Below, piece after piece: positions 1,267 through 16,137 of a stretch of 64,000 nt of DNA. A model generated the notes under the pieces. It was given only the letters and a program-made list of their open reading frames with translations. It did no database searches and was not told the origin of the DNA. The translations under genes and the position numbers were made by a program. Source of the stretch: an uncultured Thermoleophilia bacterium (lineage in GTDB: Bacteria; Actinomycetota; Thermoleophilia; UBA2241); NCBI GenBank assembly GCA_963699725.1, contig CAVOVA010000001.1:75937-139936 (forward strand), read 5' to 3'. Position 1 is the stretch's first letter; every line of letters starts with the position of its first letter.

Positions 1267-2238
1267 TCAGTTCACGTTGGGCAGGACCGATCGGTAGATG
1301 CCGACCTTGAGGACCGAGTACTTCAGCGAGAACGCGCCGATGGTGTGGCAGACGATGGCCGCGATGAGCAGCGGCCCGGCCTGCGCCTCCTCCAGAAACA
1401 TGGTCGCGAACGAGATCGTCAGGGGGGTGATGATGCCGAGGACCACGATGCCGACCCAGAACACCCAAGCCGTGCTGCCGCTGATCAGGTCGCGGGCGGC
1501 CAGCTCGGCGGCCGAGTGCTTGCGGTACGCCTGCACGAGGTAGCCGAGGATGAGCAGGGCGTTGACGACGAGCAGGACGCGGCTCCATGACTCCAGCGTG
1601 GAGATGGCGAGGTCGTCCGTCGTCAGGCTGATGCCCATCGTGAGCGCCAGGCCGTCGGCGACGCCCATGAGCACGAACACGATGGGCAGCAGGCCCGTGT
1701 TCCAGAACGGCACGCTCTTGCAGTAGCTCATCGCGAAGCCGCAGTACACGCCGGTGAGCAGGATGAAGACGCCGGCGACGATGCTGGCGGCCCAGCTGAT
1801 CACGGTGACGACGTCGGTGGCGGAGCCGGTCACGACGTCGTTGTAGAGCAGGTACCACGCGACCATCTGCACGAGGCCGGCCGTCACGAAGACGATGGAG
1901 AAGAACATGCCGCGCGCCAGCCACGAGGTCTTCCAGGCCTTGGTGAACGGTGGGATGGCGCGCCAGAAGCGCAGCGGTCTGCCGAGGTACACCAGGTGCA
2001 GCGGCAGCTTGAAGAGCACGATGAGCGCCCAGCCGACGACGGTGGCCCACCACGCGCCCTCGGTGAGCCCGCCCAGCCCCGCGAGCAGGCCGACGAGGTA
2101 AAGGCCCATGCCGAGCGCGGAGAAGACCTCGGCGAGCCACACGAGGACGCCCTTGCCGGAGATCCACTCCTTCTGGCGCATGGGCTTGACCATCCACTCG
2201 TGCGTGACGAGCCACTGACGGCGGGTCTGCGCCTTCAT
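1267..2238 (-). CDS. NrfD/PsrC-family polytopic membrane anchor subunit of a Mo-oxidoreductase.
   Basis: MKAQTRRQWLVTHEWMVKPMRQKEWISGKG... followed by eight or more hydrophobic helices. Start ATG at 2238 overlaps the upstream stop (ATGA). It is sandwiched between the FeS and catalytic subunits. Confidence 0.8.
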   Translation of the reverse strand: MKAQTRRQWLVTHEWMVKPMRQKEWISGKGVLVWLAEVFSALGMGLYLVGLLAGLGGLTEGAWWATVVGWALIVLFKLPLHLVYLGRPLRFWRAIPPFTKAWKTSWLARGMFFSIVFVTAGLVQMVAWYLLYNDVVTGSATDVVTVISWAASIVAGVFILLTGVYCGFAMSYCKSVPFWNTGLLPIVFVLMGVADGLALTMGISLTTDDLAISTLESWSRVLLVVNALLILGYLVQAYRKHSAAELAARDLISGSTAWVFWVGIVVLGIITPLTISFATMFLEEAQAGPLLIAAIVCHTIGAFSLKYSVLKVGIYRSVLPNVN

Positions 2239-3041
2239 GGCTCGACCTCCCCGGCCGGCGCGGGCTGAGCGCACTTGGGCTCGACGTGCAGGCGCTTCGC
2301 CGCGTCGCGGTCGATGGAGCTCAGATGCTGGATGTGGCTCCCGGTCTGCGCACGCCTCGGCGCGACGTTGGACGGTACGCCTCCCAGCCTGTAGTCGACG
2401 TAGTAGACCGAAGGATCGGTGCCGTACTCGGTGCGCAACTGAAAGCCACCGTGCTTGCGGATCAGCATCGAGACGTTGCTGTCCGGATCGTCGAGATCGC
2501 CGAAGGTGAGGGCGCGGGCCTGGCAGACGTTGACGCAAGCCGGAGAGGCGTCACGGTCGACGCCGGGCTGCAGGCCTCTGCTCATCCCGGCGTCGATGCG
2601 CTCGACGCAGAAGTTGCACTTCTCGGTCGTTCCCACCTGGTGCGGGAAGATCTTCTGGCCCTTGTTCTCGAAGCCGGTCTTCTCGTAGCCGGGGAAGTAG
2701 CCGGGGTTCTTGTCCTTCGAGAGGAAGGTGCGGTTCTGGTAGGGGCAGGCGATGACACAGTAGCGGCAGCCGATGCACTTGTCGGAGTCGATGACGACGA
2801 TGCCGTCCTCACGCTGGTGCGAAGCCTCGGTCGGGCAGACGTGCGTGCACGGCGCGTCGGCGCACTGGTTGCAGCGCACCGGGTAGGTGGACACGTCCAC
2901 CGCACCGCCCTCGTCCACCTCATAGGCGATGAGCTTGACCCAGGTGATGTGCAGGGGCAGGAAGTGCTCGACCCTGCAGGCGGCGACGCAGGCGTGACAG
3001 CGCATGCACTTCGCCAGATTGATGACCATTCCCCATCTCAT
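2235..3041 (-). CDS. 4Fe-4S ferredoxin-type electron-transfer subunit (DmsB/PsrB/TtrB-like).
   Basis: MRWGMVINLAKCMRCHACVAACRVEH...CNQCADAPC...CIGCRYCVIACPY...CNFCVERID. Four Cys clusters are present. No Tat signal. The start could instead be upstream at 3092. Confidence 0.85.
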   Translation of the reverse strand: MRWGMVINLAKCMRCHACVAACRVEHFLPLHITWVKLIAYEVDEGGAVDVSTYPVRCNQCADAPCTHVCPTEASHQREDGIVVIDSDKCIGCRYCVIACPYQNRTFLSKDKNPGYFPGYEKTGFENKGQKIFPHQVGTTEKCNFCVERIDAGMSRGLQPGVDRDASPACVNVCQARALTFGDLDDPDSNVSMLIRKHGGFQLRTEYGTDPSVYYVDYRLGGVPSNVAPRRAQTGSHIQHLSSIDRDAAKRLHVEPKCAQPAPAGEVEP

Positions 3042-3167
3042 GGGCGGACTCCTGTCGTAGGGACTGGGCCTCGTCTCATGACTCTCCAACACTGACGCGT
3101 GTCAGAGTCAAAGACAGGCCTTCCGGTCCGTGGAGTGCCGGGCCGGAGCCGGTTCCGGAGAGCCCCG

Positions 3168-3195
3168 GTGGGCCGGCCGCACAAGACCGGCCCAC
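3168..3195 (-). terminator. GC hairpin (GTGGGCCGG-N10-CCGGCCCAC) about 25 nt downstream, in the minus sense, of the beta1 stop.
   Basis: Perfect 9-bp inverted repeat seen in the sequence. No clear U-tract, which is common at high GC. Confidence 0.3.
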
Positions 3196-3219
3196 CGGAT
3201 CCGCTCCGCGAGCTGTCTG

Positions 3220-4038
3220 CTACTTCGCCAGGGCGATGTCGCCCAGGTTCACGTCCTTCGTCGTGTCGATGGAGTCGTAGGTCTTGTCGGCGAACCCGTC
3301 GGCAACGATCGAGAGGACGTACTCGCCCTCTTCCAGCCCGTGCAGCCAGAAGTCGCCGAAGGCGTCGGTGGTCGCCGAGACGGCGTCGCCGCCGCCGGCC
3401 GGGGTCGCCGTGCAGGCGGCGCCGATCACGACCTCCTTCTCAATGGGGTCGTAGACCGTACCGGCGATGAACTTCTTCGGGATGTTGAGGTAGTACACAC
3501 GAGGCTTGGTGCCGAGCTCCGGCTTCATGACCTCGGCCTGGGCGATGAGGTCGGCGAACTCGCTCTCCTCGCCGAACCGGATCGCCTCTGTGGGGCACGA
3601 GTCGACGCAGCGCGGGACGTCCCACTCACCGCTGTCGAGCAGGTGCGCGCAGCCGGTGCACTTCTGCGCCAGGTTGAGGTCGTCGTTGAAGTAGATCGAA
3701 CTGTACGGGCACGAGTCGACGCACGCCTTGCACCCCGTGCACGCGTCCGTGTCGATGATGACCAGGCCGTCGTCGCGTTTGTAGATGGCGCCCTCGATGG
3801 GGCACGACTCCATGCACGGGGCCTCGTCGCAGTGGTTGCAGAGATTGGGCACGTAGTGCATGCGCACGTGCGGCACCGAGCCGCGGATGTGCTCGTCCAG
3901 ACGCATCCAGAACTGGCCGCTGTCCGGCTGGGGCTTGGCGATCGGCGCCCAGTCGTTGCCGACGTGTTCGTCCTTGCAGGCGAACTGGCAGCCGAAGCAG
4001 CCGTTGCAGACGCCGACATCGATGATGAATGCCTTCAT
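3220..4038 (-). CDS. Pyrogallol-hydroxytransferase small-subunit-like FeS protein (BthL-like): 3x[4Fe-4S] domain plus C-terminal carboxypeptidase-regulatory-like beta-sandwich.
   Basis: MKAFIIDVGVCNGCFGCQFACKDEH...CNHCDEAPC...CTGCKACVDSCPY...CTGCAHLLD...YYLNIPKKFIAGTVYD...DAFGDFWLHGLEEGEYVLSIVADGF. This matches the Pelobacter BthL architecture. Shine-Dalgarno GAGGGAGGGAAC. ATG at 4038. Confidence 0.85.
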   Translation of the reverse strand: MKAFIIDVGVCNGCFGCQFACKDEHVGNDWAPIAKPQPDSGQFWMRLDEHIRGSVPHVRMHYVPNLCNHCDEAPCMESCPIEGAIYKRDDGLVIIDTDACTGCKACVDSCPYSSIYFNDDLNLAQKCTGCAHLLDSGEWDVPRCVDSCPTEAIRFGEESEFADLIAQAEVMKPELGTKPRVYYLNIPKKFIAGTVYDPIEKEVVIGAACTATPAGGGDAVSATTDAFGDFWLHGLEEGEYVLSIVADGFADKTYDSIDTTKDVNLGDIALAK

Positions 4039-4040
4039 GA

Positions 4041-6668
4041 TCAGTCGTTCCCTCCCTCGACCCAGCCGTTGAAGCGAAGGCCGGCCGCCTGGTCGTACTC
4101 TCTCTCGAACGCGTCGGGATAGTCCCGGCGCCAGGTCTCCCACTCCTCGGGCCTGATCTTCTGCACGTCCACGAGGAAGCCGCTCGTGGCCTGGCCACAG
4201 GCGTTCTTGGAGGTGAGGCCGTTGGGGGCGATGGTGTTGATGGCGCCGCCGCGGTCGACCTTGCCGGGGATGATCGGGTCGTGGCGCGCGCCGTGGTCGA
4301 TGTAGGCCACGCCCGGCATCAGACGCTCCCACACACAGGCGCCGCCGAGCACGATCCCGCGCTCGTTGAAGATCTTGACGATCTCGCCGTGCTCGATGCC
4401 GCGCTCGGCCGCGTCCTTCGGGTTGAGCCAGAGCGGCTCGTACCGGTAGTTGTCCGGCCCGAGCACCTTGCCGGTCGGGGTCTCGCGTGCCCAGGTGCAG
4501 TCGTCGCCCTGGGCGTGGGTGCGCCAGCGCGGGTGGTTGCTCATCAGCATCAGCGGGAACATGTCGGCGCGCTCGCTGGAGAGGCGCTCGTCGTGGGTGA
4601 TGCCGCGCTCGATCCACTTCGGGATCGGCGGCCGCTCCTGGTCGAGCGGGAAGTGCGTGGCGAGACGCTCGGAGTAGAACTCGAGCAGGCCCGACGGGGT
4701 CTTGAGCGGATGGTTCTCGGGATCCTCGTAGAACTGGCGCAGGCCCGGAGGATCCTGCTCCCAGTCTTCGGCGGTCGGGAAGACGCAGTACTTGTTCTCC
4801 TCGAACTCTTCCCAGGTCATGTAGCGCGAGATCTGCATGTTGTCGTAGATCTCGCGCTCGAGGTCCTTGACGGTCTTGCCCTTGGTGACCTGCTCGGTCA
4901 TGCCCAGCTTCTCGGCCACGGCAAGGACGATCTCGTAGTCGCTCTTGGACTCGCCGATCGGCTCGATGGCCTTTTCCTGCAGGGTGACGCTCTGGAACGG
5001 CGGCCCCTGCCGCACGTTCGTGACGACGTCCTCGACCTCCATCGTGGTGTTCGCCGGCAGGATGATGTCGGCGTAGAGGCAGTCGTTCTCGAGCCACGGG
5101 TGCTGGGCCACCATGAACTCGATGCTCGGGTCGCGATGGGCCTCGATGGTCCAGTTGCCGTGGTTCCAGCAGGTGATGCGGCAGGGCGTGTCGGTCCAGA
5201 TCATGTGGAGCCGGGTGCCGCCTTCGTCCGGCGGGTTCGGGAACTGATAGTCGATGAACTGGTCCTCCGTCTCGGCGTTCTGCGCGCCGGTGCCGGAGAA
5301 GTGGATCGTCTCGCTGTTGAGGATCGCCTCCTGGATGAGGGTCTTGGGGATGTTCTGCGTGCCCCAGGCGTCGACGCTGCTGCGCACGGGGGTACGCAGG
5401 CCTTCGCTGAGGGTCGGGTTGAAGTAGCGGAAGTGTTCGAGAGCCTCCGCCCGAGGCATGCCGAAGTACGACATCTGCCACTGGTGCACACCCGGGCCGC
5501 CGAGCCCCTGCATCCCGAGCAGGATGCACTCGAGGCGGCCGGGCTCGTGCGAGTACGGGCCGCGGATCATCGACCCGCCGAAGTAGTGCAGGATCGAGGT
5601 CGTCTGCCGCGCGAACTCGCGCGCGAGCGCCTTGATCGTCCACTCGGGGATGGTGGTCTTCTTCGAGGCCCACTCCGGGGTCTTGGGGACACCGTCGTCT
5701 TCACCGAGGACGTAGGCGGCGACCTCGTCCATGCCGACGGCATGGCTGGCGACGTACTCCTTGTCCCACGTGTCTTCCTTCAGCCACACGTAGATGATGG
5801 CCAGCTGCAGAGCGGCGTCGGTGTTGGGGAGGATCGGGATCCACTTGTCGGCGTGGACCGCGGCGCCGAAGTTGAGCTCGGGGCAGATGTAGACCTGCTT
5901 GATCCCCACCTCGGTGAAGAAGTAGGAGACGTTGGTCGCGTTCTGCCCTGTGAACCCCCACGGGGTGGTCTCGTCATCGCAGCCCCACTTGAGGACCATG
6001 CCGCAGTGCTCGACGACGTCCTTCAAGATGTTCAACTGGGGCGCCATCATGCCCTGGAAACCCTGTCCCCACACGTGCTTGGAGCCCCAGTACCAGCCCT
6101 CCCAGCTGTCCGGCTGGCGGACCTGCAGGGTGAAGCCGCCCATCTCGTCGAGGAGACGGGCGCTGTGGCCGTGCGGCGTGTGGATCGTCTTGCTCTCGCC
6201 GTGGCCGTCGCCCTGTACGAGGATGGCCGCCGGCCCGTATGCCTTGTGGATGCGCGCGATCTCGCCGGCGATGATGTCGGTGGCCTCGTCCCAGGTGATG
6301 CGGACGTACTTGCTCTTGCCGCGGTTCTGCGGATTGCGCTCCCCGTTGGGGTCCCAGTCCACACGCTTGAGCGGGTACTTGACGCGGTTCGGGGAGTAGG
6401 TGCGCTTCTTGTAGGCGGTCATGTAGGGAGCCGGGCGCGACCGCATGCCGGGCTCCAGGGTCGCGCCGTTGCGCTCGATCTTCCACGGGCGGAAGCTCTC
6501 ACCGTCGTACTTCCAGTCGAACTGGAACGGCCGGATCCGCAGGATCTTGCCGTCCTTCACGTCGACCATGACCTCACCGGTGCCGCCGAGGAGGCCGCCC
6601 TGCGACAAGGCCCTGATCACCGTCTTGTCCGGGGTCACGTCGACCTTCCTGCGTTCCTTGTCCGTCAT
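4041..6668 (-). CDS. Pyrogallol-phloroglucinol transhydroxylase large-subunit-like molybdoenzyme (AthL family, DMSO-reductase superfamily), paralog 1.
   Basis: 875 aa. ...VKDGKILRIRPFQFD...RVKYPLKRVDWDPNGERNPQNRGKSKYVRITWDEATD...NPDSWEGWYWG... No N-terminal Cys cluster, as in the transhydroxylase alpha subunit. Stop at 4041 lies 2 bp before the beta1 start. Confidence 0.85.
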   Translation of the reverse strand: MTDKERRKVDVTPDKTVIRALSQGGLLGGTGEVMVDVKDGKILRIRPFQFDWKYDGESFRPWKIERNGATLEPGMRSRPAPYMTAYKKRTYSPNRVKYPLKRVDWDPNGERNPQNRGKSKYVRITWDEATDIIAGEIARIHKAYGPAAILVQGDGHGESKTIHTPHGHSARLLDEMGGFTLQVRQPDSWEGWYWGSKHVWGQGFQGMMAPQLNILKDVVEHCGMVLKWGCDDETTPWGFTGQNATNVSYFFTEVGIKQVYICPELNFGAAVHADKWIPILPNTDAALQLAIIYVWLKEDTWDKEYVASHAVGMDEVAAYVLGEDDGVPKTPEWASKKTTIPEWTIKALAREFARQTTSILHYFGGSMIRGPYSHEPGRLECILLGMQGLGGPGVHQWQMSYFGMPRAEALEHFRYFNPTLSEGLRTPVRSSVDAWGTQNIPKTLIQEAILNSETIHFSGTGAQNAETEDQFIDYQFPNPPDEGGTRLHMIWTDTPCRITCWNHGNWTIEAHRDPSIEFMVAQHPWLENDCLYADIILPANTTMEVEDVVTNVRQGPPFQSVTLQEKAIEPIGESKSDYEIVLAVAEKLGMTEQVTKGKTVKDLEREIYDNMQISRYMTWEEFEENKYCVFPTAEDWEQDPPGLRQFYEDPENHPLKTPSGLLEFYSERLATHFPLDQERPPIPKWIERGITHDERLSSERADMFPLMLMSNHPRWRTHAQGDDCTWARETPTGKVLGPDNYRYEPLWLNPKDAAERGIEHGEIVKIFNERGIVLGGACVWERLMPGVAYIDHGARHDPIIPGKVDRGGAINTIAPNGLTSKNACGQATSGFLVDVQKIRPEEWETWRRDYPDAFEREYDQAAGLRFNGWVEGGND

Positions 6669-6738
6669 CTCGATCGCTGTCCTTTCGCCGTCGCTGGGGC
6701 CGGGATGGAGTCGTGGTGGGGCCTGCAGAGCTGAGGGG

Positions 6739-7575
6739 CTACCCGGCGTTCCAGCCGAGGTAGGTCGAGAGCAGGGTCGCGGTGTGCTTCACCGCTTCGG
6801 CGCAGCGCGTGCGCTCCTCGGGGCCGAAGCGGCCGATGGGGGTGACCACGGAGATCGCCGCGACCACGTCGCCCACCTGGTCGCGGACCGGCGCGCCGAC
6901 GGCGCAGAGACTCGCGTACAGCCCTGCGTCGTCGTAGGCGACGTCGTCGCGGGCGACGCGGTCGAGCTCTTCCGCGAGCGCCTGCGGATCGGTCACCGTG
7001 TTCGGCGTGAGCTTCGGCAGGGGTCGCGCCAGCAGCTCGGCGCGTTCCTCCCCGGGCTTGAAGGCCGCGAAGATCTTGCCGTGGACGGAGGCAAGGTTGC
7101 CGATGATCCGCCCGGGCGCCGTGCGGCGCTGGAAGGGTCTGGTGGTGTCGATGCAATCCACGCAGACCGGCCGGTCGTCGACCTCGAGCGCCAGGGTGAC
7201 GGACTCGCCGGTCTCTTCGGCCAGGGCCTCGAGGAAGGGCCTGGCGGTCTCGACGAAGTCGGAGAACCCGTCCGACACGTACGCCAGCGCGAGCGCGGCC
7301 GGACCGACGTGGTACTTGTTGGTGACGCGGTCGCGGATGAGGAAGCTGGAGCCCTCGAGCGTGCGCACCATCCGGTAGGCCGTCATGCGCAGCAGGCCCG
7401 TCTGCTCGGCGATCTCGTCGATGGTCCATTCGCGGTGGTCGACGTCGAACAGGGAGAGCACTGAGAGGCCGCGCGCGAGCGCACGCACGGAGAGCGCATC
7501 GGAGCCGGCGGCCGGACCGGACGTCCTGAGCGGGGGTTTGGCGCGCTTCCCCCGTGTCGTGCCCGAAGCTCCCAT
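6739..7575 (-). CDS. IclR-family transcriptional regulator (IclR-1).
   Basis: MGASGTTRGKRAKPPL...ALSVRALARGLSVLSLF...IAEQTGLLRMTAYRMVRTLE... HTH plus effector domain. It lies 70 bp upstream of alpha1 on the same strand. The reading frame is embedded in a spurious 1140-aa antisense ORF in the track. Confidence 0.8.
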   Translation of the reverse strand: MGASGTTRGKRAKPPLRTSGPAAGSDALSVRALARGLSVLSLFDVDHREWTIDEIAEQTGLLRMTAYRMVRTLEGSSFLIRDRVTNKYHVGPAALALAYVSDGFSDFVETARPFLEALAEETGESVTLALEVDDRPVCVDCIDTTRPFQRRTAPGRIIGNLASVHGKIFAAFKPGEERAELLARPLPKLTPNTVTDPQALAEELDRVARDDVAYDDAGLYASLCAVGAPVRDQVGDVVAAISVVTPIGRFGPEERTRCAEAVKHTATLLSTYLGWNAG

Positions 7576-7628
7576 AAGACCCTTCCCGTCCGCGAGTCCT
7601 GCGTGCAACGCAGCATATCCTTGCATAG

Positions 7629-7681
7629 CGCTGATATGACGATGTACGATATCAGCGTTGCTACCAGACGATATCAGCGTT
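7629..7681. promoter_or_regulatory. Candidate operator in the IclR-1/alpha2 divergent intergenic region: inverted repeat CGCTGATAT-N11-ATATCAGCG plus a direct repeat of ACGATATCAGCGTT (7646-7659 and 7668-7681).
   Basis: Read directly from the sequence. The region is locally AT-richer (about 50% GC) than its surroundings. Confidence 0.45.
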
Positions 7682-7800
7682 TTGAGTGTTTGCAAGCGGA
7701 AAATGGGTCGATGATCGGCCATCGTCGCGGCCAGGTGGTGTGCGAACGGGGAGAAGCCGGGCGTCTCAGGGGATGGAGAGGACTCGTCGGAGGTAGAGGC

Positions 7801-10329
7801 ATGACTGAAGAGGTCTACACGAACTGCACGAACTGCGGCCCCGTGTCCGTGTACGTGAAGGACGGTGCGGTCGTACGCATTCGGCCTCTCGTCGCCGACG
7901 AGACCGACTTCCGGCCCTGGGTGATCGAGGCGGACGGCGAGCAGTACTCCCCGCCGAAGAAGTTCAATCTTGCGCCGATGGTGCACGCCGAGCGCCGCCG
8001 CCTCTACTCGCCGGAGCGCATCAAGTATCCGATGAAGCGCGTCGACTTCGACCCGAATGGCGAGCGCAATCCGCAGAACCGCGGCAAATCGGCCTACGAG
8101 CGCATCTCCTGGGACGAGGCGCTCGACATCGTGTCGGGCGAGATCAAGCGCGTCAAGGACACCTACGGCGGTTCGGCGATCAGCGGGCTGACCTCCTCGC
8201 ACCACAACTGGGGCATCGTCGGCTACAAGATGGGCCCGTTCCCGCGCTTCATGAACCTCCTCGAGTTCACTCCCGTCCTGGACAACCCGGACAGTTGGGA
8301 AGGCTGGCACTGGGGCGCGACGCACTCGTACGGCTTCTACTGGCGCCTCGGCATGCCTGAGCCCTTCGATCAACTGGCGGACGCGCTCCAGAACGCCGAG
8401 ATGATCGTCCTCTGGTCCAACGACCCCGACTCCACCCGAGGCACCTACGCGGGCCAGGAGTCGGCGCTGTGGCGTACGTGGCTCAAGGAGAAGGGCGTCC
8501 AGACGGTCTTCATCGATCCTTTCCACAACTACACGAACGCGTTGTTCGACAAGGCCAAGTGGATCGCCCCGCGGATGGGGACGGACACGGCGATGGCGAT
8601 GGCGATCGCCTACGTGTGGATCACCGAGGACACGTACGACAAGGAGTACGTCGCCGACCGGACCATCGGCTTCGAGGAGTTCAAGCCCTACGTGCTCGGC
8701 GAGACAGACGGCGTGCCCAAGACGCCGGAGTGGGCGGCCGTGGAGTGCGATGTGGACGCGCGCGTCATCCGCACCCTCGCGCGCGAGTGGGCGAGCAAGC
8801 GCACCATCCTCTCGGGCGGCGCGCGCGGCGGCGAAGGCGGCGCCTGCCGTACGGCTTACGGCACCGAGTGGGCGCGCATGATGGTCCTGCTGCAGGCCAT
8901 GCAGGGGCTGGGCAAGCCCGGCCGCAGCATCTGGGGCGTCGCCATGGGTGCGCCGGCCGACTTCGAGACCTGGTTCCCGGCCTACGCCGACCCCACCGGC
9001 CGTATCTCGCTCTCCAAGCTGGTCGCCGACTTCATTCCGGCCAATCCGACCAAGCAGCGCCTCTGGCGGCTCACGGTGCCGGACGCCATCCTCGACCCGC
9101 CGGTGGACTGGTACGGCGCCGGCTTCTGCGGCCAGTCGCTCGAGCAGCAGTTCGAGCACTTCGAGTACCCCGCCGAGGGCTGCTCGGAGATCAAGCTCTT
9201 CTACCGCTACGGCGGGTCCTTCATGGGCACCATGTCGGACACCACGAAGTGGGTGCGCATGTACCAGAGCCCCAAGCTCGAGTTCGTCGTCAACCAGGAC
9301 ATCTGGTACAACGGCGAGACCCGGATGGCCGATGTGATCCTCCCGGCCTGCACCAACTTCGAGCGCGACGACATCGGCGAGTTCGCCGCCTGCGGCGGGT
9401 ACACGACGAACTCGCACACGGGCAACAACTACCGCGTCATCGTGCGCGAGAAGAAGTGCATCGAGCCGCTCTGGGAGTCCAAGTCGGACTACCAGATCTT
9501 CGCCGACCTCTCCGAACGTTTGGGCATGTACGACGAGTTCACCGACGGCGGCAAGACCGAGCTCGACTGGGTCAGACTCTTTTTCGATGCCTCCGACCTG
9601 CCCAAGCTCGTCGACTGGGAGACCTTCGACCGGAAGGGCTACCACATCATCAACGCGCCCGAGGACTACAAGCCGACGCCGATGATGCGCTGGTTCGCCG
9701 AAGGCCGCGCCTGCGACACGCCCGACCTCATGAACCCCAAGCGCGGCACCGACAAGGCGCACGAGCTCGGCACCTACAGCGGCAAGATCGAGTTCTCTTC
9801 CGAGAGCCTCAAGGCGCACTTCCCCGACGACCCCGAGCGGCCGGTATACCCGCAGTACCTCGAGAGCTGGGAGGGTCACCACACCACCGAGCTCTTCGAG
9901 AAGTACCCGCTCCAGCTGCTCTCGCCCCACCCGCGCTTCTCGTTCCACTGCCACTACGACAAGCACACCGACTGGCTGGACGACATCCCCGTCCATCGCA
10001 TCAAGAAGGACGGCTACGCCTGGTGGCCGGCCAGGCTCAACCCCGGGGACGCGGAGGCGCGCGGCGTGCGCAACGGCGACATCGTCCGGCTCTACAACGA
10101 CCGCGGATCGGTGCTCTGCTGCGCCGTGGTGACCGGGCGCGTGCGGCCCGGCGTCGTGCACAGCTACGCCTCCTCGGCGAAGTACGATCCGCTGAGCCCA
10201 GGCAAGGCCGACGCGATCGACAAGGGCGGGTGCGTGAACATGCTCACGCCCTCACGCATGCTCAGCAGGAACGTCCCCGGCATGACGCCCAACTCGTGCC
10301 TCATCGACGTCGAGAAGTGGGAGGGCTGA
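7801..10329 (+). CDS. Pyrogallol-phloroglucinol transhydroxylase large-subunit-like molybdoenzyme (AthL family), paralog 2.
   Basis: MTEEVYTNCTNCGPVSVYVKDGAVVRIRPL...RIKYPMKRVDFDPNGERNPQNRGKSAYERISWDEALDIV...NPDSWEGWHWGATHSYGFYWRLGMPEPFDQLADALQNAEMIV...ILPACTNFERDDIGEFA... Block-by-block similarity to P. acidigallici AthL recalled from memory. Shine-Dalgarno GGAGGTAGAGG. Confidence 0.9.
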   Translation: MTEEVYTNCTNCGPVSVYVKDGAVVRIRPLVADETDFRPWVIEADGEQYSPPKKFNLAPMVHAERRRLYSPERIKYPMKRVDFDPNGERNPQNRGKSAYERISWDEALDIVSGEIKRVKDTYGGSAISGLTSSHHNWGIVGYKMGPFPRFMNLLEFTPVLDNPDSWEGWHWGATHSYGFYWRLGMPEPFDQLADALQNAEMIVLWSNDPDSTRGTYAGQESALWRTWLKEKGVQTVFIDPFHNYTNALFDKAKWIAPRMGTDTAMAMAIAYVWITEDTYDKEYVADRTIGFEEFKPYVLGETDGVPKTPEWAAVECDVDARVIRTLAREWASKRTILSGGARGGEGGACRTAYGTEWARMMVLLQAMQGLGKPGRSIWGVAMGAPADFETWFPAYADPTGRISLSKLVADFIPANPTKQRLWRLTVPDAILDPPVDWYGAGFCGQSLEQQFEHFEYPAEGCSEIKLFYRYGGSFMGTMSDTTKWVRMYQSPKLEFVVNQDIWYNGETRMADVILPACTNFERDDIGEFAACGGYTTNSHTGNNYRVIVREKKCIEPLWESKSDYQIFADLSERLGMYDEFTDGGKTELDWVRLFFDASDLPKLVDWETFDRKGYHIINAPEDYKPTPMMRWFAEGRACDTPDLMNPKRGTDKAHELGTYSGKIEFSSESLKAHFPDDPERPVYPQYLESWEGHHTTELFEKYPLQLLSPHPRFSFHCHYDKHTDWLDDIPVHRIKKDGYAWWPARLNPGDAEARGVRNGDIVRLYNDRGSVLCCAVVTGRVRPGVVHSYASSAKYDPLSPGKADAIDKGGCVNMLTPSRMLSRNVPGMTPNSCLIDVEKWEG

Positions 10330-10333
10330 TCAA

Positions 10334-11167
10334 ATGGCGCGACTGAGCCTTCTGATCGATGTGACCAGGTGCACCGGCTGCTACAACTGCTTGCTGGCGT
10401 GCCGTGACGAGCACTACGGCAACGACTACCCGGGCTACTCGGCCGCACAACCCCTGAACGACCAGTTCTGGATGCAGGTCAAGGAGATCGAGCGCGGCTC
10501 CTACCCGCGTCCCAAGCTCGACTACGTCGCCGTCCCGTGCCAGCACTGCGCGGACGCGCCGTGCATCGACGCCGCCACAGGCGAAGCCGTCTACCGGCGC
10601 GACGACGGCGTCGTGATCATCGACCCGGTGAAGGCCAAGGGCCAGCCGCAGATCGCGCAGGCCTGCCCGTACCGGGTCGTCTTCTGGAACGCGGACCTCG
10701 AGATCCCGCAGAAGTGCGGTATGTGCGCCCACCGGCTCGACGCCGGCGAGAAGCAGCCGCGCTGCTCCGAGTCGTGTCCCACCGGCGCCATGGTGTTCGG
10801 CGACCTCGACGACCCGCAGTCGGAGATCGCGCAGCGTGTCGCGGCCCTCGAGACCGAGGTGCTGCATCCCGAGTACGGTTGCTCGCCGCTGGTGCGCTAC
10901 CACGGTATCCCCAGGCGCTTCGTTGCCGGCGAGGTCGTCCTCGACGACGTCGCCGATGTCTGCGCCCGGGGGGTCAAGGTCGTGCTCGAGGGCGAGGGCG
11001 TGCGCGACGAGACCACCTCGGACGTCTTCGGCCAGTTCGAGTTCGAGGGCCTCGTCCATCGCGGCTCCTACACGATCTCGGTCGAGCACCCGGGCTACGT
11101 GGCGCGGCAGCTGGACGTGCGCACCGACACCGACGTGTACGTGGGCGAGGTGCGCCTCACGCGCTGA
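10334..11167 (+). CDS. Transhydroxylase small-subunit-like FeS protein (BthL-like) with C-terminal CarbopepD-regulatory-like domain, paralog 2.
   Basis: MARLSLLIDVTRCTGCYNCLLACRDEHYGNDYPGY...CQHCADAPC...CPYRVVFWN...CGMCAHRLD...VFGQFEFEGLVHRGSYTISVEHPGY. Starts 5 bp after the alpha2 stop. Confidence 0.9.
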   Translation: MARLSLLIDVTRCTGCYNCLLACRDEHYGNDYPGYSAAQPLNDQFWMQVKEIERGSYPRPKLDYVAVPCQHCADAPCIDAATGEAVYRRDDGVVIIDPVKAKGQPQIAQACPYRVVFWNADLEIPQKCGMCAHRLDAGEKQPRCSESCPTGAMVFGDLDDPQSEIAQRVAALETEVLHPEYGCSPLVRYHGIPRRFVAGEVVLDDVADVCARGVKVVLEGEGVRDETTSDVFGQFEFEGLVHRGSYTISVEHPGYVARQLDVRTDTDVYVGEVRLTR

Positions 11168-11457
11168 AGCAGCGTCGAAGGAGCCGGGCCCCGGCACCCT
11201 CCGCAGCGTGTGGGGCCGAGGGCGACGTGCCGGACTCGCGGAGCGTTCATCTGGACAAGAGCACGAACCTCGGCCAGGTCCTGCAGCCCGCGCCTGACGC
11301 AGCCGCGTCGAGAAGGCTCCTCGCAAGCGCTTCCCTCGCGAGCCGTTCGGGCGCCCGCCTTCTCCCGAGGGCGGGCGCCCATTCCCGCTTGCGCGTCCCG
11401 ATGGCCCGGCGCTTCCGCCGGCTCCCGCCGGGCCGATTGACCTGCCGCCGCACCCGA

Positions 11458-11498
11458 GATACGGTACCATTGTACGGATACAGCATGCCGTATGATGG
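11458..11498. promoter_or_regulatory. Candidate operator: GATACGG, TACGGATAC and CCGTATGATGG elements (11-mer at 11488-11498) upstream of IclR-2.
   Basis: Sequence motif shared with sites at 13396, 16138-16155 and 18805-18836. Confidence 0.4.
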
Positions 11499-11670
11499 AA
11501 CGCCAGCGAGTGATGGTGCAGCGTCCCGCGTGGTCGCCGAAGGTCACGGGGAAGCAGGAGACAGGCGCGCTACGGCGGCGCGCGATGGAGCGCACCAAGA
11601 CCACCCCGGCGGCTGGCTACCGTCTCGTGCAGGCGAAGCCCGCGCGGAGGGCGACGCACACCGAACGGCC

Positions 11671-12471
11671 ATGGCCGAGAAGGACCCGGAGATGCCACAA
11701 CGCCCTGACGACAACACTGATGCGCAGAAGGGCGGCATGCAGGTCATCACGAGGGCCGCGGCCATCCTCGAAGGGCTCGCGGAGTCACGCGGCGGCCAGA
11801 CGTTGGCGCAGCTCGCGTCCCGGACGGGTCTGCCCAAGACGACCGTGCACCGCATCTGCACCGCCCTGGAACAGGTCGGCTACGTGCGCGTCGACGAAGC
11901 GACCGGCCTGCGCGAGCTCGGCCGCGGGCTCCAGCGCCTGGCCGTCCTCGGCCGCCGCGATCTGCTCACCGTGCTGGAGCCGTATCTCGAGCGCCTGTCC
12001 CGGGACCTCAACGAGACGGTGGACCTGGCCGTGCTGGATGGCTCGCGCGTGCTGTTCCTGGCACAGCATCCGGCGCCGCACCGCGAGCTCATGGCGATCG
12101 CCAGGGTGGGTGCTCACTTTCCGGCCTACAGGCTGGCCAGTGGCAAAGTCCTCCTTGCCCAACTCTCGCCGGACGAGCTCCGCCGCCGTCTGCCGCGGAC
12201 GCTGGAGCCGACGGCCGAAGGCTCGCCCAGGAGTCGCGAGGAGCTGCTGCGCGAGCTCGAGGAGGTGCGCTTCACCGGCCTCGGCTACGAGCGTGAGGAG
12301 CTCCGGCACGGTATCTGCGCCATCGCCGTGGTTGTGACCGACGTCGACGGGCGCAGCGCGTCGATCGCGACGCCAATGCCGGCATCGCGCTTCTATCAGG
12401 ATCAGGATTCGGTGACGGCGAAGCTGCTGTCCCTGCGCGATGCGATCCAGCGGGATCTGGACGGCGTCTGA
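11671..12471 (+). CDS. IclR-family transcriptional regulator (IclR-2).
   Basis: MAEKDPEMPQ...MQVITRAAAILEGL...LASRTGLPKTTVHRICTALEQVGYV...NETVDLAVLDG...ARVGAHFPAY... ATG at 11671. An alternative ATG lies at 11737. Confidence 0.8.
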   Translation: MAEKDPEMPQRPDDNTDAQKGGMQVITRAAAILEGLAESRGGQTLAQLASRTGLPKTTVHRICTALEQVGYVRVDEATGLRELGRGLQRLAVLGRRDLLTVLEPYLERLSRDLNETVDLAVLDGSRVLFLAQHPAPHRELMAIARVGAHFPAYRLASGKVLLAQLSPDELRRRLPRTLEPTAEGSPRSREELLRELEEVRFTGLGYEREELRHGICAIAVVVTDVDGRSASIATPMPASRFYQDQDSVTAKLLSLRDAIQRDLDGV

Positions 12472-12543
12472 GCCGCCTTGCCTCGGACCCGGTCCGGCGC
12501 ATCTGATGCCGTGCGGGAGCGGGGCCAGAGACGAGGAGGGCAC

Positions 12544-13305
12544 ATGAACGTGTTCGACATCGCCGGACGGTGCGCCGTGGTCGTCGGCGGCGGCGGGCTC
12601 GGCGGGGAGATCGCCCGGGGGCTGGCCGACCACGGCGCTCACGTCGCCGTCGCCGACGTCGATGAGGAGCGTGCCGCCGCATCCGTCGCCGCTATCGCAG
12701 GTCAAGGGGTCGACACGCTCGGCCTCGCCATCGACGTGACCGACGAGCGTTCGGTGCGCCGCGCCGTCACCGACGTGCTCGCGACCTTCCCCAGGATCGA
12801 CATCCTGGTCAACGCTGCCGGGGTGACTGTGCGCAAGCGGGCGGAGGATCTCCCGGTGGACGACTGGCGGCGCGTCCTGGAGATCAACGCCACCGGCACC
12901 TTCGTCTGCTGCCAGGCCTTCGGCGCGGAGATGGCGCGTGGCGGTGGGGGCGCGATCGTCAATCTGTCCTCCGTGCGAGGGCGGTTCGGTGCGACCTTCG
13001 GGCAAGCGGAGTACTCGGCGAGCAAGGGCGCGGTCGACTCCCTGACACGCTCGCTCGCCGTGCAGTGGGCCGAGTTCGGTATCCGTGTGAACGCGGTCGC
13101 GCCGACCTTCGTCGAGACCGACCTCACGCGGGCCGTGCTCGCCGACGACGCCTTCGCCGCCGGCCTGCGCGCAAGCATTCCCATGGGGCGCTGGGCCGAG
13201 GCTGCCGACGTGGTCGGTCCCGTGCTCTTCCTCGTCTCGCCGGCGGCGGCGTTCGTCACCGGCCAGATCCTCTACGTGGACGGCGGTCTCACGGCGCGCG
13301 TCTGA
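12544..13305 (+). CDS. Short-chain dehydrogenase/reductase (SDR). Candidate phloroglucinol reductase or 3-hydroxy-5-oxohexanoate dehydrogenase.
   Basis: MNVFDIAGRCAVVVGGGGLGGEIARGLA... (TGxxxGxG Rossmann motif) ...NAAG...SSVRG...YSASKGAV (YxxxK)...VNAVAPTFVET. Pathway role is inferred from context only. Confidence 0.85.
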   Translation: MNVFDIAGRCAVVVGGGGLGGEIARGLADHGAHVAVADVDEERAAASVAAIAGQGVDTLGLAIDVTDERSVRRAVTDVLATFPRIDILVNAAGVTVRKRAEDLPVDDWRRVLEINATGTFVCCQAFGAEMARGGGGAIVNLSSVRGRFGATFGQAEYSASKGAVDSLTRSLAVQWAEFGIRVNAVAPTFVETDLTRAVLADDAFAAGLRASIPMGRWAEAADVVGPVLFLVSPAAAFVTGQILYVDGGLTARV

Positions 13306-13395
13306 GCGTTCGCGGACCTGGCGGCAGGGCGCTCGGGGGATGCTTGACCTGCTCCCGGCCATCTGCAAGAGTGTTCGCATCATGGACTAGCAGTT

Positions 13396-13406
13396 CCGTA
13401 TCGTGG
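13396..13406 (+). promoter_or_regulatory. CCGTATCGTGG motif upstream of SDR-2.
   Basis: Exact 11-mer. Also present at 18805 (+) and 16145-16155 (-). Confidence 0.4.
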
Positions 13407-13556
13407 GCATTCCGCCCTTGAGCGGACGGCCGGATGGGACCCTGGTGACCGGGTCGCCGGGCTGTGGGTGAGCACGCTCGTCACAGCCGCATCGCGCGAA
13501 AGCCGCTCCCCGGTCCGTCGCCCGTGAACCGGACACGACGCGAGAGGAGACGTGCG

Positions 13557-14357
13557 ATGGCTGAGCGTGAGATCTGGAGCGTCGACAAGATCCGCGGCCT
13601 GTTCGATCTGACCGGCAAGGTCGCGATCGTGACCGGCGGGTCAGGGGCCTTCGGCCACGATGCCGCCAAGGCGATGGCCGCCTTCGGCGCGAGTGTGGTC
13701 GTCACGAGCCGGCGCGTCGAGAACGTCGAGTCGGCCGCGGCCGACATCGCCGGGGCGACCGGCGCGCGGGTGCTGCCCGTCCCGTGCGATGCGGTCGACC
13801 CGGAGAGCGTCGAGGCCATGGTGCAGAAGACCGTCGACGAGTTCGGCAAGGTCGACATCCTCGTCACTGCCGCCGGCCAGGCCAACCGCTTCGCCGCCGA
13901 GGAGTTTCCGCTCGACGAGTGGCAGAAGGTCATGGACTCGCTCGTCAAGGGTACCTATGTCGTCTGCCAGGCTGCCGGCAAACGCATGATCGCCCAGGGC
14001 GGCGGCAAGATCATCACCGTCGGGTCCGTGCGCGGCGAGCTCGGGCATCCCGGAGGGTATTCCGCGTACGGCACCGCCAAGGGCGCGGTACACCTGCTCA
14101 CCAAGCAGCTCGCCGCTGAGTGGGCCAAGTACCATATCAACGTGAACTCCATCGCCCCCTGCATCTTCTGGACCCCGCTCACACAGCAGGTCCTCGACGA
14201 CCCCGAGCTCTACAAGATCTTCATGCAGCGCATCCCGTGGGGCCGCGCCGCGGATCCTCAGGACTTCATGGGCGCGACGGTGTACCTCGCCTCGGCGGCG
14301 TCCGACTTCGTCACCGGGGACATCCTGATGGTCGACGGCGGCAGCACCGCCGCCTGA
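13557..14357 (+). CDS. Short-chain dehydrogenase/reductase (SDR) no. 2. Candidate for the second reductive/oxidative step of the phloroglucinol pathway.
   Basis: MAEREIWSVDKIRGLFDLTGKVAIVTGGSGAFGHDAAKA...YSAYGTAKGAV...VNSIAPCIFWTP. Shine-Dalgarno GAGAGGAGA. Confidence 0.85.
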   Translation: MAEREIWSVDKIRGLFDLTGKVAIVTGGSGAFGHDAAKAMAAFGASVVVTSRRVENVESAAADIAGATGARVLPVPCDAVDPESVEAMVQKTVDEFGKVDILVTAAGQANRFAAEEFPLDEWQKVMDSLVKGTYVVCQAAGKRMIAQGGGKIITVGSVRGELGHPGGYSAYGTAKGAVHLLTKQLAAEWAKYHINVNSIAPCIFWTPLTQQVLDDPELYKIFMQRIPWGRAADPQDFMGATVYLASAASDFVTGDILMVDGGSTAA

Positions 14358-14380
14358 CTCTCCGGCTGAAGGGGGCCGCA

Positions 14381-15331
14381 GTGAGCACCACGGGCGCTGA
14401 GTGCGTCGCCGTCGTCGGGGGCGGCATGATGGGCGTCGGCGTGGCCCAGGTCTTCGCCGCCGCCGGACATGAGGTCGCGCTCCAGGATGTGTCTCAGGAG
14501 GCCCTCGAGCGCGCCCCGGGCACCATCTCGGCGAACCTGGCCTTCCTCGCAGAGCACGGTCTCTTCGCGGCCGACGGCGTCGACGACGCCGTCGGCCGCG
14601 TGCGCACCACCGCGGAACTCACGGAGGCGGCCGCCGGCGCCGACGTCGTCGTCGAGTGCGTGTTCGAGGATCTCGCCCTCAAGCAGGAGGTCTTCGAGCG
14701 TCTCGACGCCGTGTGCCCGGTCGAGACGATCCTGTGCACCAATACATCGGTGATGAGCATCACCGAGATCGGCGCCCGCGCCGTGAACAGGCAGCGGGTC
14801 GTCGGCACGCACTTCTGGAACCCGCCGTACCTGATCCCGCTGGTCGAAGTCGTGCGCACCGAGCACGTCGATCCAGCGGTGGTCGAACGCACCATGGACC
14901 TCCTGCGACGCGTGGGCAAACACCCGATCGACTGCAAGAAGGACGTTCCCGGCTTCGTCGCCAATCGCCTGCAGCATGCCCTCTGGCGGGAGGCCATCTC
15001 GATCGTCGAGCGAGGCATCGCCGACGCCGAGACGGTGGACGAGAGCATTCGCTACGGTCCCGGTCTGCGCCTGCCGATCCTGGCGCCGATGGAGAACGCG
15101 GACATGGTGGGTCTCGACCTCACGCTGGCGATCCACGACTACATCCTGCCCCACCTCGAGGCTTCGGGCGAGCCGTCGCCGCTCTTGCGCGCGAAGGTCG
15201 AGGCCGGGGATCTCGGATTCAAGAGCGGCAAGGGGTTCGCCGAGTGGACGCCCGAGTCGGCTGAGGCGTCGCGGAGGCGTTTGGCGGCCTACCTGGTGCA
15301 CGTGCTGGGCGATCCCGAGCGGGGGTTCTGA
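14381..15331 (+). CDS. 3-hydroxyacyl-CoA (3-hydroxybutyryl-CoA) dehydrogenase, NAD-binding.
   Basis: VSTTGAECVAVVGGGMMGVGVAQVFAAAGHEVALQD...NTSVMSITEI...GTHFWNPPYLIPLVEVV...GFVANRL. GTG start with Shine-Dalgarno GAAGGGGG. Confidence 0.8.
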   Translation: MSTTGAECVAVVGGGMMGVGVAQVFAAAGHEVALQDVSQEALERAPGTISANLAFLAEHGLFAADGVDDAVGRVRTTAELTEAAAGADVVVECVFEDLALKQEVFERLDAVCPVETILCTNTSVMSITEIGARAVNRQRVVGTHFWNPPYLIPLVEVVRTEHVDPAVVERTMDLLRRVGKHPIDCKKDVPGFVANRLQHALWREAISIVERGIADAETVDESIRYGPGLRLPILAPMENADMVGLDLTLAIHDYILPHLEASGEPSPLLRAKVEAGDLGFKSGKGFAEWTPESAEASRRRLAAYLVHVLGDPERGF

Positions 15332-15353
15332 GACGGCCGAGCGGCGCGACGGA

Positions 15354-16082
15354 GTGCAGGTCCTCTCGCGCGCGGCGCTGCTGCTGCGGGCGCTCTCCGT
15401 CACGCCTGAGGGCCTGACTCCAATCGCGCTCGCCGACCAGGTCGGCCTGCCGCGCTCCACCTGCTACCGCATCGTCGGCGCGCTCTGCCAGGAGGGGCTC
15501 ATGCGCCTCTCGCCCTCGGGCAAGCTGCACATCGGCGCCGGTCTCATCAGCCTCGCCGCCGCCGGCCGGCGCGATCTGCGGCACGAGTCGGCTCCGCTCC
15601 TCGAGCGCCTTTCACTCGAGTTGCACGAGACCGTGGAGCTCGTCGTGCTCGACGGCGACGAGGCGCTGTTCACCGACCAGTACGTCCCGCAACGCTCGCT
15701 GCGCGTGGTGGCGGAGGTGGGCGACCGCTTTCCGCTCTACTGCACCGCGTGCGGCAAAGCGCTGCTGGCCGAGCTGCCGGCCCCGGAGGCGGCGCGTCTG
15801 GTACCGCCGCGTCTCGAGCCGCTCACCCGCCACACCATCGTCGACCGGGACGCGCTCTTCCGGGAGGTCGAGGAGGCGCGGACCACCGGCGTGGCCTACG
15901 ACCACCAGGAACACACGCTCGGCGTGTCCGCGGTGGGCGCCGCCCTCAAGGATGCCGGCGGCGCCATGGCCGCCATCACCGTGGCCATGCCGGCCGCTCG
16001 CCTCGACGGCCACGAGGAGCGCATCTCCGCCGCGCTCCTCCGTACTCGCGACGACATCCAGCAGGCCATCAACGCGAGCTGA
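15354..16082 (+). CDS. IclR-family transcriptional regulator (IclR-3).
   Basis: VQVLSRAALLLRALSVTPEGLTPIALADQVGLPRSTCYRIVGALCQEGLM...HETVELVVLDG...VGDRFPLY... Paralog of IclR-2 and IclR-4. The start codon (GTG at 15354) is uncertain. Confidence 0.7.
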   Translation: MQVLSRAALLLRALSVTPEGLTPIALADQVGLPRSTCYRIVGALCQEGLMRLSPSGKLHIGAGLISLAAAGRRDLRHESAPLLERLSLELHETVELVVLDGDEALFTDQYVPQRSLRVVAEVGDRFPLYCTACGKALLAELPAPEAARLVPPRLEPLTRHTIVDRDALFREVEEARTTGVAYDHQEHTLGVSAVGAALKDAGGAMAAITVAMPAARLDGHEERISAALLRTRDDIQQAINAS

Positions 16083-16137
16083 CCGGCGGCCGCCTCCAAC
16101 GCCGCATCCGTATTGACAGCGGATTCGGGACGTCTTA

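Follow-up and report, generated by a model that had tools for sequence, protein, structure and literature searches.

Two divergent AthL-family molybdenum enzyme pairs from distinct clades in a candidate polyphenol catabolic locus

Here, we describe two divergent pairs of molybdenum enzyme genes, alpha1/beta1 and alpha2/beta2, and the IclR-type regulator that lies between them at positions 3220 to 11167 of a 64-kb stretch of contig CAVOVA010000001.1 (contig positions 75,937 to 139,936; hereafter the window, with a G+C content of ~68%). Each pair combines a large molybdenum subunit with a small iron-sulfur (FeS) subunit, and the closest solved relative of all four proteins is the pyrogallol hydroxytransferase 4v4c (442 bits for alpha1, 883 for alpha2, 188 for beta1, and 202 for beta2), which is AthL/BthL, also called PgtL/PgtS, of Pelobacter acidigallici (PDB 4V4C/4V4D/4V4E). 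In what follows, clade A denotes the AthL group, clade B the group of alpha2, and clade C the group of alpha1. L-numbers (L001 and so forth) denote the compared loci from relatives' genomes, and the sample centred on clade-C genes comprises 80 loci.

The two gene pairs and their regulator

The gene map was drawn from reading frames chosen by third-position G+C content (GC3) together with Pfam matches. On the minus strand lie alpha1 (4041-6668), the 875-aa clade-C large subunit of the molybdenum bis(pyranopterin guanine dinucleotide) (Mo-bisPGD) type, and its small subunit beta1 (3220-4038; 272 aa); on the plus strand lie the clade-B Mo-bisPGD large subunit alpha2 (7801-10329; 842 aa) and its small subunit beta2 (10334-11167; 277 aa). 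The start of alpha2 was placed at ATG 7801 inside the open reading frame 7603-10329 of the plus strand; GGAGG precedes this ATG, and the homologues of alpha2 are 838-843 aa long. Both pairs are where a preliminary description of this DNA, made from the letters alone, had placed them, and the two peptides that it quoted are found in the translations. Pseudogenes were ruled out, given intact open reading frames, a GC3 of 0.90-0.93, and the presence of the catalytic Ser.

By Pfam, alpha1 and alpha2 alike match PF21423 (AhtL-like_1st), PF00384, and PF01568, while beta1 and beta2 both match Fer4_11 and, in a C-terminal beta-sandwich, CarboxypepD_reg. AthL/BthL is built in the same way: its large subunit resembles both alphas in the N-terminal domain, in the lack of an FS0 cluster, and in the Asp-Ser-Trp motif with His144, and its small subunit ends in a CarboxypepD_reg-like beta-sandwich, as do beta1 and beta2. 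No FS0 Cys motif is found in alpha1 or alpha2. The first 90 residues of alpha1 contain no Cys, and an FS0 cluster in alpha2 was ruled out on the basis that its two N-terminal Cys are not conserved within clade B. Tat export of the alphas was also ruled out, there being no twin-arginine signal and the clade consensus being KK and not RR.

The large subunits had been assigned in the preliminary description to the type II DMSO-reductase family, a label that we do not retain. FS0 is absent, the ligand is Ser, and the type III (BisC/TorA/DorA) models and folds are nearer, the type II model TIGR03479 scoring the alphas at only 144-145 bits. Among the NCBIfam models, bisC_fam, DmsA, and TorA give the best partial matches, with scores of 306-373 bits that fall far under the cut-offs of these models. 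Foldseek with the AlphaFold model of alpha1 returns 4v4c_A first (template modelling score 0.73), followed by TorA and DorA (0.64-0.66); as this model has a mean predicted local distance difference test score (pLDDT) of 66 and is of low confidence in the region of the cofactor site, it served fold assignment only and not pocket analysis. Because bisC_fam, DmsA, and TorA are the best partial models and TorA and DorA the next fold neighbours, the alpha family is, by sequence models and predicted fold, nearest to the type III enzymes and not to type II. DorA, TorA, and BisC are Ser-ligated and lack FS0, as do the alphas, but they are single-subunit enzymes with neither an FeS partner nor an AthL-like first domain, unlike the pairs in the window.

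The regulator IclR-1 (6739-7575, minus strand; likely start ATG 7575, 278 aa) consists of an N-terminal HTH_IclR domain (PF09339) and a C-terminal effector domain (PF01614), with the NCBIfam models BhcR and PcaR/PcaU being its nearest, under cut-off. It is co-directional with alpha1, 70 nt upstream of it, and divergent only to alpha2. The order IclR, alpha1, beta1 is kept in L001-L003, L007, L008, L041, L075, L085, and L090. The divergent region ahead of alpha2, of ~225 bp, contains a cluster of operator-like repeats (7624-7684), in which two exact direct copies of the 14-nt sequence ACGATATCAGCGTT, at 7646-7659 and 7668-7681, stand 22 nt apart and an inverted arm occupies 7624-7637. No further match to ACGATATCAGCGTT with up to 2 mismatches exists elsewhere in the 64 kb. 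The divergent regions of relatives carry different but similarly AT-rich repeat clusters, plus a common TTTGCAAG element, and a promoter/terminator scan of 2000-12600 gave nothing above chance. Hence the earlier picture of an IclR gene between the pairs with a structured operator region holds for its position and for the repeats, though IclR-1 is not free-standing, as it runs in the same direction as alpha1. Binding of IclR-1 to the 7624-7684 repeats is plausible, and IclR-1, which would be co-transcribed with alpha1/beta1, probably controls both divergent promoters through this cluster. The shared promoter region is not universal, because in L090 two extra genes, for an MFS transporter and a BON-domain protein, part IclR-1 from alpha2.

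Clades, active-site residues, and cluster content

A neighbour-joining tree of 72 non-redundant sequences (100 bootstraps) recovers clade A with a bootstrap of 100, clade B with 99, and clade C with 100. Clade B is the sister of the AthL group, and clade C is distant. Orthology with AthL fails in the tree for both alphas, as neither falls in the AthL-proper clade, and neither clusters tightly with AthL as a recent duplicate. The two alphas are 36% identical to each other and the two betas 40%; against AthL, alpha2 is 48-50% identical and alpha1 34-36%. Recent duplication or redundancy of the pairs is ruled out by these identities between the pairs and by the separate clades.

Clade C is large. 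The best 120 protein matches are 66-91% identical to alpha1 and come from Thermoleophilia, Dehalococcoidia, and other Chloroflexota metagenome-assembled genomes (MAGs), and there are at least 593 genome matches, of which the best 80 are all MAGs. The genome matches take the clade down to ~55% identity, adding Desulfobacterota, Acidobacteriota, and Clostridia. Alpha1 itself had no exact match in the sequence collection. Clade-B members are 71-94% identical to alpha2, and AthL is not among the best 120 matches to this protein. For clade A, at least 120 proteins reach 61% identity to AthL, among them proteins of a Thermoleophilia MAG and of Parasporobacterium paucivorans. The homology-search matches for clades B and C contained no named or characterised protein.

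A further subfamily, marked by an N-terminal extension of ~150 aa, is found on megaplasmids of Ensifer, Burkholderia, and Rhizobium, and also supplies the third alpha of L090. A tblastn search with alpha1 found no clade-C member on plasmids, its matches there being relatives at 31-34% identity from this extended subfamily. The extended proteins occur in cultured aerobic soil bacteria (Ensifer, Rhizobium, Sinorhizobium, Burkholderia, Paraburkholderia, and Cupriavidus). One such pair, on plasmid pT173c of Ensifer canadensis (L092, 8566-12431), lies beside VOC and fumarylacetoacetate-hydrolase genes, and its beta has 9 Cys in the cluster region. Together, these sequence comparisons show that the AthL family holds at least three, and probably four, deep and well-conserved subfamilies.

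Active-site columns were read, in AthL numbering, from alignments of clades A (n=123), B (n=130), and C (n=206). None of the three shows any variation at His144, Asp174, Ser175 (the Mo ligand), Trp176, or Arg359. The Mo-site residues are H156 and D187-S188-W189 in alpha1, with Ser188 as the predicted ligand, and H135 and D165-S166-W167 in alpha2. Inactivating lesions of the Mo ligand, a possibility raised in the preliminary description, were looked for and none was found, both alphas keeping the Ser.

Other columns separate the clades. Clade A has Tyr152, Arg153 (119/123), Trp354 (109/123), Tyr404, and Tyr560. Clade B has the same three tyrosines, with Lys153 and Glu354 (each in 129 of the 130 sequences) and a deletion of 407-411; alpha2 keeps Tyr152, Tyr404, and Tyr560 and carries the clade-wide R153K and W354E signature. 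Clade C has Thr152, Pro153, Gly354, and Gly145, an invariant Asp142 and His154, and, by alignment, no segments corresponding to those of Tyr404 and Tyr560. In the multiple alignment, alpha1 has T152, P153, and G354 and lacks equivalents of Tyr404 and Tyr560; a separate pairwise alignment puts Phe at 354 and Leu at 404, still without the Trp and Tyr of AthL at these positions. A published eLife alignment shows the clade-A "GYR" signature in the protein of Eubacterium oxidoreducens, which we count in this clade; pyrogallol-phloroglucinol isomerase activity has been demonstrated in this organism. For alpha2, K153 and E354 together with the clade separation suggest a preference for a substrate or co-substrate unlike that of AthL. 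A separate observation concerns the column of AthL Trp147, which in clade C is Cys in 174 of the 206 sequences, Ser in alpha1 (residue 159) and the proteins closest to it, and Asn or Thr in further members; this position may be relevant to specificity or redox chemistry, with its variation suggesting sub-specificities inside clade C.

The small subunits differ in their Cys content. Beta1 has 16 Cys arranged in four complete CxxCxxCxxxC-type motifs (C11-21, C67-79, C100-110, and C127-148) of canonical spacing. Beta2 and BthL have in common a 12-Cys pattern, consistent with three predicted [4Fe-4S] clusters, in which groups I and IV are complete, group II lacks its fourth Cys, and group III retains only its last. 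Under the ligand scheme of NarH and DmsB, this pattern corresponds to removal of the distal cluster FS4, the one that normally contacts the next redox partner. All 16 Cys are kept in 58 of 63 beta1-type homologues, and all true beta2-type homologues have 12. Beta1 is therefore predicted to carry four [4Fe-4S] clusters and beta2 three.

In sum, AthL/BthL and alpha2/beta2 have Tyr152, Tyr404, Tyr560, and the three-cluster 12-Cys pattern in common, while alpha2 differs from AthL in its identity (48-50%), its place in a separate sister clade, its K153/E354 in place of R153/W354, and its deletion after Tyr404. Alpha1/beta1 stands further off, with five pocket residues missing and four predicted clusters in place of three. 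These results bear on three statements of the preliminary description. The strong divergence of the two pairs is borne out by the identities, as is their standing as distinct paralogues by the conserved, separate clades (bootstraps of 99 and 100 out of 100) with differing pocket residues. The attribution of a three-cluster small subunit to both pairs applies to beta2, with 12 Cys like BthL, and not to beta1, with 16 Cys in four motifs, the C-terminal beta-sandwich being present in each. Likewise, the transhydroxylase architecture claimed for both pairs fits alpha2/beta2 but not alpha1/beta1, which has a four-cluster beta and has lost the site of Tyr404, Tyr560, Tyr152, Arg153, and Trp354; that the large subunits are cluster-less is true of both.

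Genomic neighbourhoods

Downstream of alpha2/beta2, on the same plus strand, IclR-2 (11671-12471) heads the SDR operon, and the gene set at 12478-18733 comprises a first SDR (12478-13305), a second SDR (13464-14357), a gene of the 3-hydroxyacyl-CoA-dehydrogenase family (3HCDH; ~14378-15331), a fourth IclR gene (15333-16082), a gene of the "cyclase" family PF04199 (16180-17241), a small cupin (17369-17722), and BKACE (17723-18733). The SDR, cyclase, 3HCDH-type, and BKACE families, assigned at the family level, all lie within 12478-18733. PGR, DPGC, TfD, and TAL of the anaerobic phloroglucinol pathway belong to these same protein families (PMC10470551). PDB searches with the two SDRs of the window returned generic SDR names only, and no named phloroglucinol reductase. 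Four families of the Clostridium scatologenes phloroglucinol cluster match the window set at the family level (PMC10470551), to which the window adds two AthL-family molybdenum enzymes (three in L090), the small cupin, four IclR genes, and a Liv-type ABC transporter. This transporter, with a binding protein, ATPases, and two permeases, occupies 19015-24815 (plus strand), a stretch that is closed by IclR-3 (23925-24815). The four IclR genes all lie in a 25-kb island, and IclR-2 and IclR-3 are 57% identical.

The phloroglucinol setting recurs with clade B. Clade-B genes occur in a phloroglucinol-pathway context in 6 of 6 examined cases (the window, L084, L085, L087, L088, and L089), in the company of a cupin, an SDR, and a cyclase, with or without 3HCDH, BKACE, or a thiolase. 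A cupin of 109-117 aa, 34-40% identical to the copy in the window, is a constant neighbour of B-type pairs (L084 13366-13698, L087 13421-13750, L088 14206-14535, and L089 13587-13919), and a similar small cupin precedes the AthL-proper gene of L091 (9098-9442). This AthL-proper gene, whose product is 96% identical to AthL, adjoins UbiD/LpdD gallate-decarboxylase genes: UbiD, LpdD-chaperone, and flavoprotein genes at 20131-22628, less than 10 kb away, appear between them to encode a gallate decarboxylase. The same neighbourhood includes a LigAB-type dioxygenase and a CoA-transferase, a setting that contrasts with those of clades B and C. While AthL-proper genes thus adjoin UbiD-type gallate decarboxylase genes in L091, the window contains no such genes.

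Clade-C genes have more varied neighbours. A head-to-head arrangement of B- and C-type pairs, as in the window, is found in Actinomycetota/Thermoleophilia MAGs (L002, L003, L007, L008, L041, L075, L085, and L090) and also in Desulfobacter (L084), with a C-type alpha that shares 66% identity with alpha1 and a partner beta that carries 16 of 16 motif Cys. Among the 80 C-centred loci, 12, from at least 6 lineages, have B no more than 10 kb from C. In Desulfobulbales and Proteobacteria MAGs, C-type genes occur with an SDR and two cyclases; they also form tandem arrays of two to four paralogues or lie near TRAP transporters. In Dehalococcoidales (L081 13842-16347; L004-L015 and L061), the C pair precedes genes for a pyridine-nucleotide-disulfide oxidoreductase, which bears a rhodanese domain, and for a class II aldolase, in conserved synteny beside MoaE, FtsH, and MetRS. 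The flavoprotein could be the redox partner of the C pair in this group.

Some loci hold more than two members of the family. In a Steroidobacteraceae MAG (L050, 9241-21000), an IclR gene is followed by three pairs in tandem, of C-type, of an unclassified 49% type, and of B-type, and in Desulfospira MAGs (L048 and L062) single operons contain four alphas; such arrays, which combine pairs of different clades, resemble a cassette for the multi-step isomerisation of hydroxybenzenes. The long tblastn matches of L028, L037, L048, and L062 span adjacent beta and alpha genes, and inteins were therefore ruled out as their cause. L090 is a sister contig of the window (86-90% nucleotide identity) in which a third AthL-family alpha, of 1011 aa, follows beta2; it has the ~150-aa N-terminal extension, Trp153, and Phe354, and lacks a beta of its own. 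The insertions of L090 span 7784-9936 and 13693-16728, and the window contains neither of them nor any remnant.

Directly downstream of beta1, on the same strand, lies a third molybdenum module consisting of a four-cluster FeS protein (2235-3092), an NrfD membrane subunit (1267 to ~2238), and an FS0-containing Mo subunit (3-1271, cut by the edge of the window) whose best PDB match is acetylene hydratase. The likeness to acetylene hydratase and the catechol dehydroxylases concerns this neighbour only, with its FS0-Mo subunit, four-cluster FeS protein, and NrfD. The trio adjoins C-type genes in three gene orders: that of the window and L090, a convergent one in L001, and an upstream one in L082 (81% identical). 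By its sequence, the module may be a catechol-dehydroxylase-like complex. The 3,5-dihydroxybenzoate operon of Thauera aromatica holds a catechol-dehydroxylase-like molybdenum enzyme, as does this locus; the Thauera operon presumably also encodes an AthL-family hydroxylase, DbhLS.

From ~25 kb onward, the window contains housekeeping and C1 metabolism genes that are unrelated to the molybdenum pairs. Among them, at 39661-40839 (minus strand) and 41900-49371 (plus strand), are genes for an N6/N4 DNA methylase, a LarC-type nickel-insertion protein, a formate-tetrahydrofolate (THF) ligase, an FTCD_C-domain protein, FolD, and a NuoF-like FeS flavoprotein. These fit an anaerobe with C1/THF metabolism, again unrelated to the pairs.

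Proposed roles and alternatives

What might the roles of the two pairs be? We propose to read the locus as a catabolic island for polyphenols (hydroxybenzenes), probably from an uncultured Actinomycetota/Thermoleophilia-like anaerobe, in which the clade-B enzyme performs hydroxyl transfer to phloroglucinol and the clade-C enzyme acts upstream of it as an electron-coupled phenol hydroxylase or dehydroxylase. Taken as a whole, this is the reading that we favour, although we would be no more surprised to see it fail than to see it hold. Alpha2/beta2 most likely forms phloroglucinol, because it combines the hallmarks of hydroxyl transfer with an embedding among phloroglucinol genes. As a cytoplasmic, Ser-ligated Mo-bisPGD enzyme, it would convert a trihydroxybenzene-type substrate to phloroglucinol, which would then enter the adjacent pathway of phloroglucinol reductase (PGR), dihydrophloroglucinol (DPG) cyclohydrolase, dehydrogenase, and BKACE lyase. 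The phloroglucinol link drawn in the preliminary description thus gains support from context, namely the SDR, cyclase, 3HCDH, and BKACE genes that follow alpha2/beta2.

For alpha1/beta1, we propose an electron-coupled role because the Mo site is kept, the tyrosine-lined pocket is lost, and four clusters, including the distal one, are kept. The enzyme would hydroxylate or dehydroxylate a phenolic ring with water as the source or sink of oxygen, preparing either the substrate of the clade-B enzyme or its tetrahydroxybenzene co-substrate, and would trade electrons with ferredoxin or with the neighbouring FeS-NrfD-acetylene-hydratase-like module. Hence, where two distinct enzymes had been suggested, one of them catalysing the pyrogallol-to-phloroglucinol transfer, the distinctness of the paralogues and the phloroglucinol context of alpha2/beta2 stand, while a second hydroxyl transfer is less likely for alpha1/beta1.

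Several points weigh against the favoured reading. Neither clade B nor clade C contains a characterised enzyme, and the substrates named here are guesses. The missing Tyr404 of alpha1 comes from a sequence alignment of an indel-rich region, with a model of pLDDT 66. In Dehalococcoidia, the C pair stands alone amid housekeeping genes, and no single redox partner accompanies clade C across all lineages. The reading of the pocket relies on the substrate/co-substrate site that Tyr404, Tyr152, Tyr560, Arg153, and Trp354 of AthL reportedly form (Messerschmidt et al. 2004). We know of no role for the three clusters of AthL, so that the cluster count is only indirect evidence of redox chemistry. Finally, Pelobacter massiliensis reportedly needs several distinct transhydroxylations, one of which could be catalysed by clade C.

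This last point leads to an alternative that we regard as rather doubtful, namely that both pairs are hydroxyl-transfer enzymes of different regiospecificity. Together they would isomerise hydroxyhydroquinone (HHQ) to phloroglucinol as in Pelobacter massiliensis, with alpha1/beta1 carrying out HHQ disproportionation or the step from 1,2,4,5- to 1,2,3,5-tetrahydroxybenzene. In its favour, both enzymes have an intact Mo site, B- and C-type pairs are conserved side by side and share a divergent promoter region, and operons with two to four family members recur (three pairs in L050, four alphas in L048 and L062, and three alphas in L090). At least three distinct transhydroxylations are also said to lack assigned proteins. 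However, clade C is without Tyr404, Tyr560, Tyr152, Arg153, and Trp354, which are near-universal in A and B, its partners keep the distal FeS cluster lost by transhydroxylase-type betas, and C often occurs with no A- or B-type gene nearby. It is because of the four-cluster beta and the lost pocket residues that we consider a second hydroxyl-transfer enzyme the less likely identity of alpha1/beta1.

Another option, which is a sub-case of the favoured electron-coupled role and in our judgement unlikely in this specific form, is that alpha1/beta1 is orthologous or closely related to the anaerobic resorcinol hydroxylase RhLS/RehLS of Aromatoleum anaerobium or the 3,5-dihydroxybenzoate hydroxylase DbhLS of Thauera aromatica AR-1 and makes HHQ for alpha2/beta2 to isomerise. 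These are Ser-ligated molybdenum enzymes of the RhL/PgtL family that hydroxylate phenolic rings with water and export electrons, and it is in the chemistry proposed here that alpha1/beta1 resembles them. A four-cluster beta would suit an enzyme exporting two electrons, clade C adjoins a catechol-dehydroxylase-like molybdenum enzyme as in the 3,5-dihydroxybenzoate operon of Thauera aromatica AR-1, and the C-type genes of Desulfobacterota have TRAP carboxylate transporters in their vicinity. On the other hand, the RhLS/DbhLS systems feed an oxidative HHQ dehydrogenase and hydroxybenzoquinone cleavage, whereas the window encodes a reductive phloroglucinol pathway, and the gene annotation of the 64 kb includes no families of the oxidative HHQ genes btdLS (HHQ dehydrogenase) and bqdLMS (hydroxybenzoquinone cleavage). 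The regulators also differ, being sigma54 enhancer-binding or LysR proteins in those systems and IclR-type in the window. RhL, which we assume to be ~50% identical to AthL, would presumably sit nearer to clades A and B than to C.

We consider it very unlikely that alpha1/beta1 is unrelated to phenols, for example a cytoplasmic BisC/DorA-type S- or N-oxide reductase with an added FeS subunit that lies beside alpha2 by chance, for although the best partial NCBIfam matches are bisC_fam, DmsA, and TorA, TorA and DorA are the next structural neighbours after 4v4c, and the Dehalococcoidia pair sits among housekeeping genes, those scores are far under the family cut-offs, alpha1 has the AthL-specific N-terminal domain and beta1 the BthL-specific C-terminal beta-sandwich, C recurs beside B-type or SDR/cyclase genes in Actinomycetota, Desulfobacter, Desulfobulbales, and Proteobacteria (L040 and L049), and the conserved upstream regulator is of the IclR type, typical of aromatic catabolism.

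The electron-coupled role proposed for clade C can be taken further, in a form that is speculative and that we think improbable as a whole. Clade C might be a new class of anaerobic, water-dependent phenol-ring hydroxylase/dehydroxylase that makes or consumes tetrahydroxybenzene or HHQ (for example, pyrogallol or HHQ + H2O -> tetrahydroxybenzene + 2e-) and is wired by its four FeS clusters to the FeS-NrfD-acetylene-hydratase-like dehydroxylase. This would amount to a "split" transhydroxylation that runs through an electron-transport chain and that would also supply the co-substrate of the classical transhydroxylases. To our knowledge, no protein has ever been assigned to the biological origin of this co-substrate.

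Our findings also bear on how the AthL family is annotated. A review of the MopB superfamily handles RhL/PgtL as one family, reports from 2013 and 2016 describe Chloroflexi genomes with two or three "AthLS" operons each, and surveys of anoxic soil, peat, sediment, and seawater label every homologue as pyrogallol transhydroxylase (pgthAB/AthLS), a label that has been used to infer polyphenol turnover and to argue about the "enzyme latch" on peat carbon. In the limited literature accessible, we found no prior account of the clade structure, the 153/354 signatures, or the three- versus four-cluster betas. The very abundant clade C is without the hallmarks of hydroxyl transfer though it is labelled pgthAB alike. 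The conserved module of B- and C-type pairs, with its IclR gene and operator-like repeats, makes a compact unit for heterologous expression. If clade C is indeed electron-coupled, many "pgthAB" calls would be mis-assigned, and the clade would offer a concrete candidate for the unassigned anaerobic hydroxyhydroquinone, resorcinol, and tetrahydroxybenzene steps.

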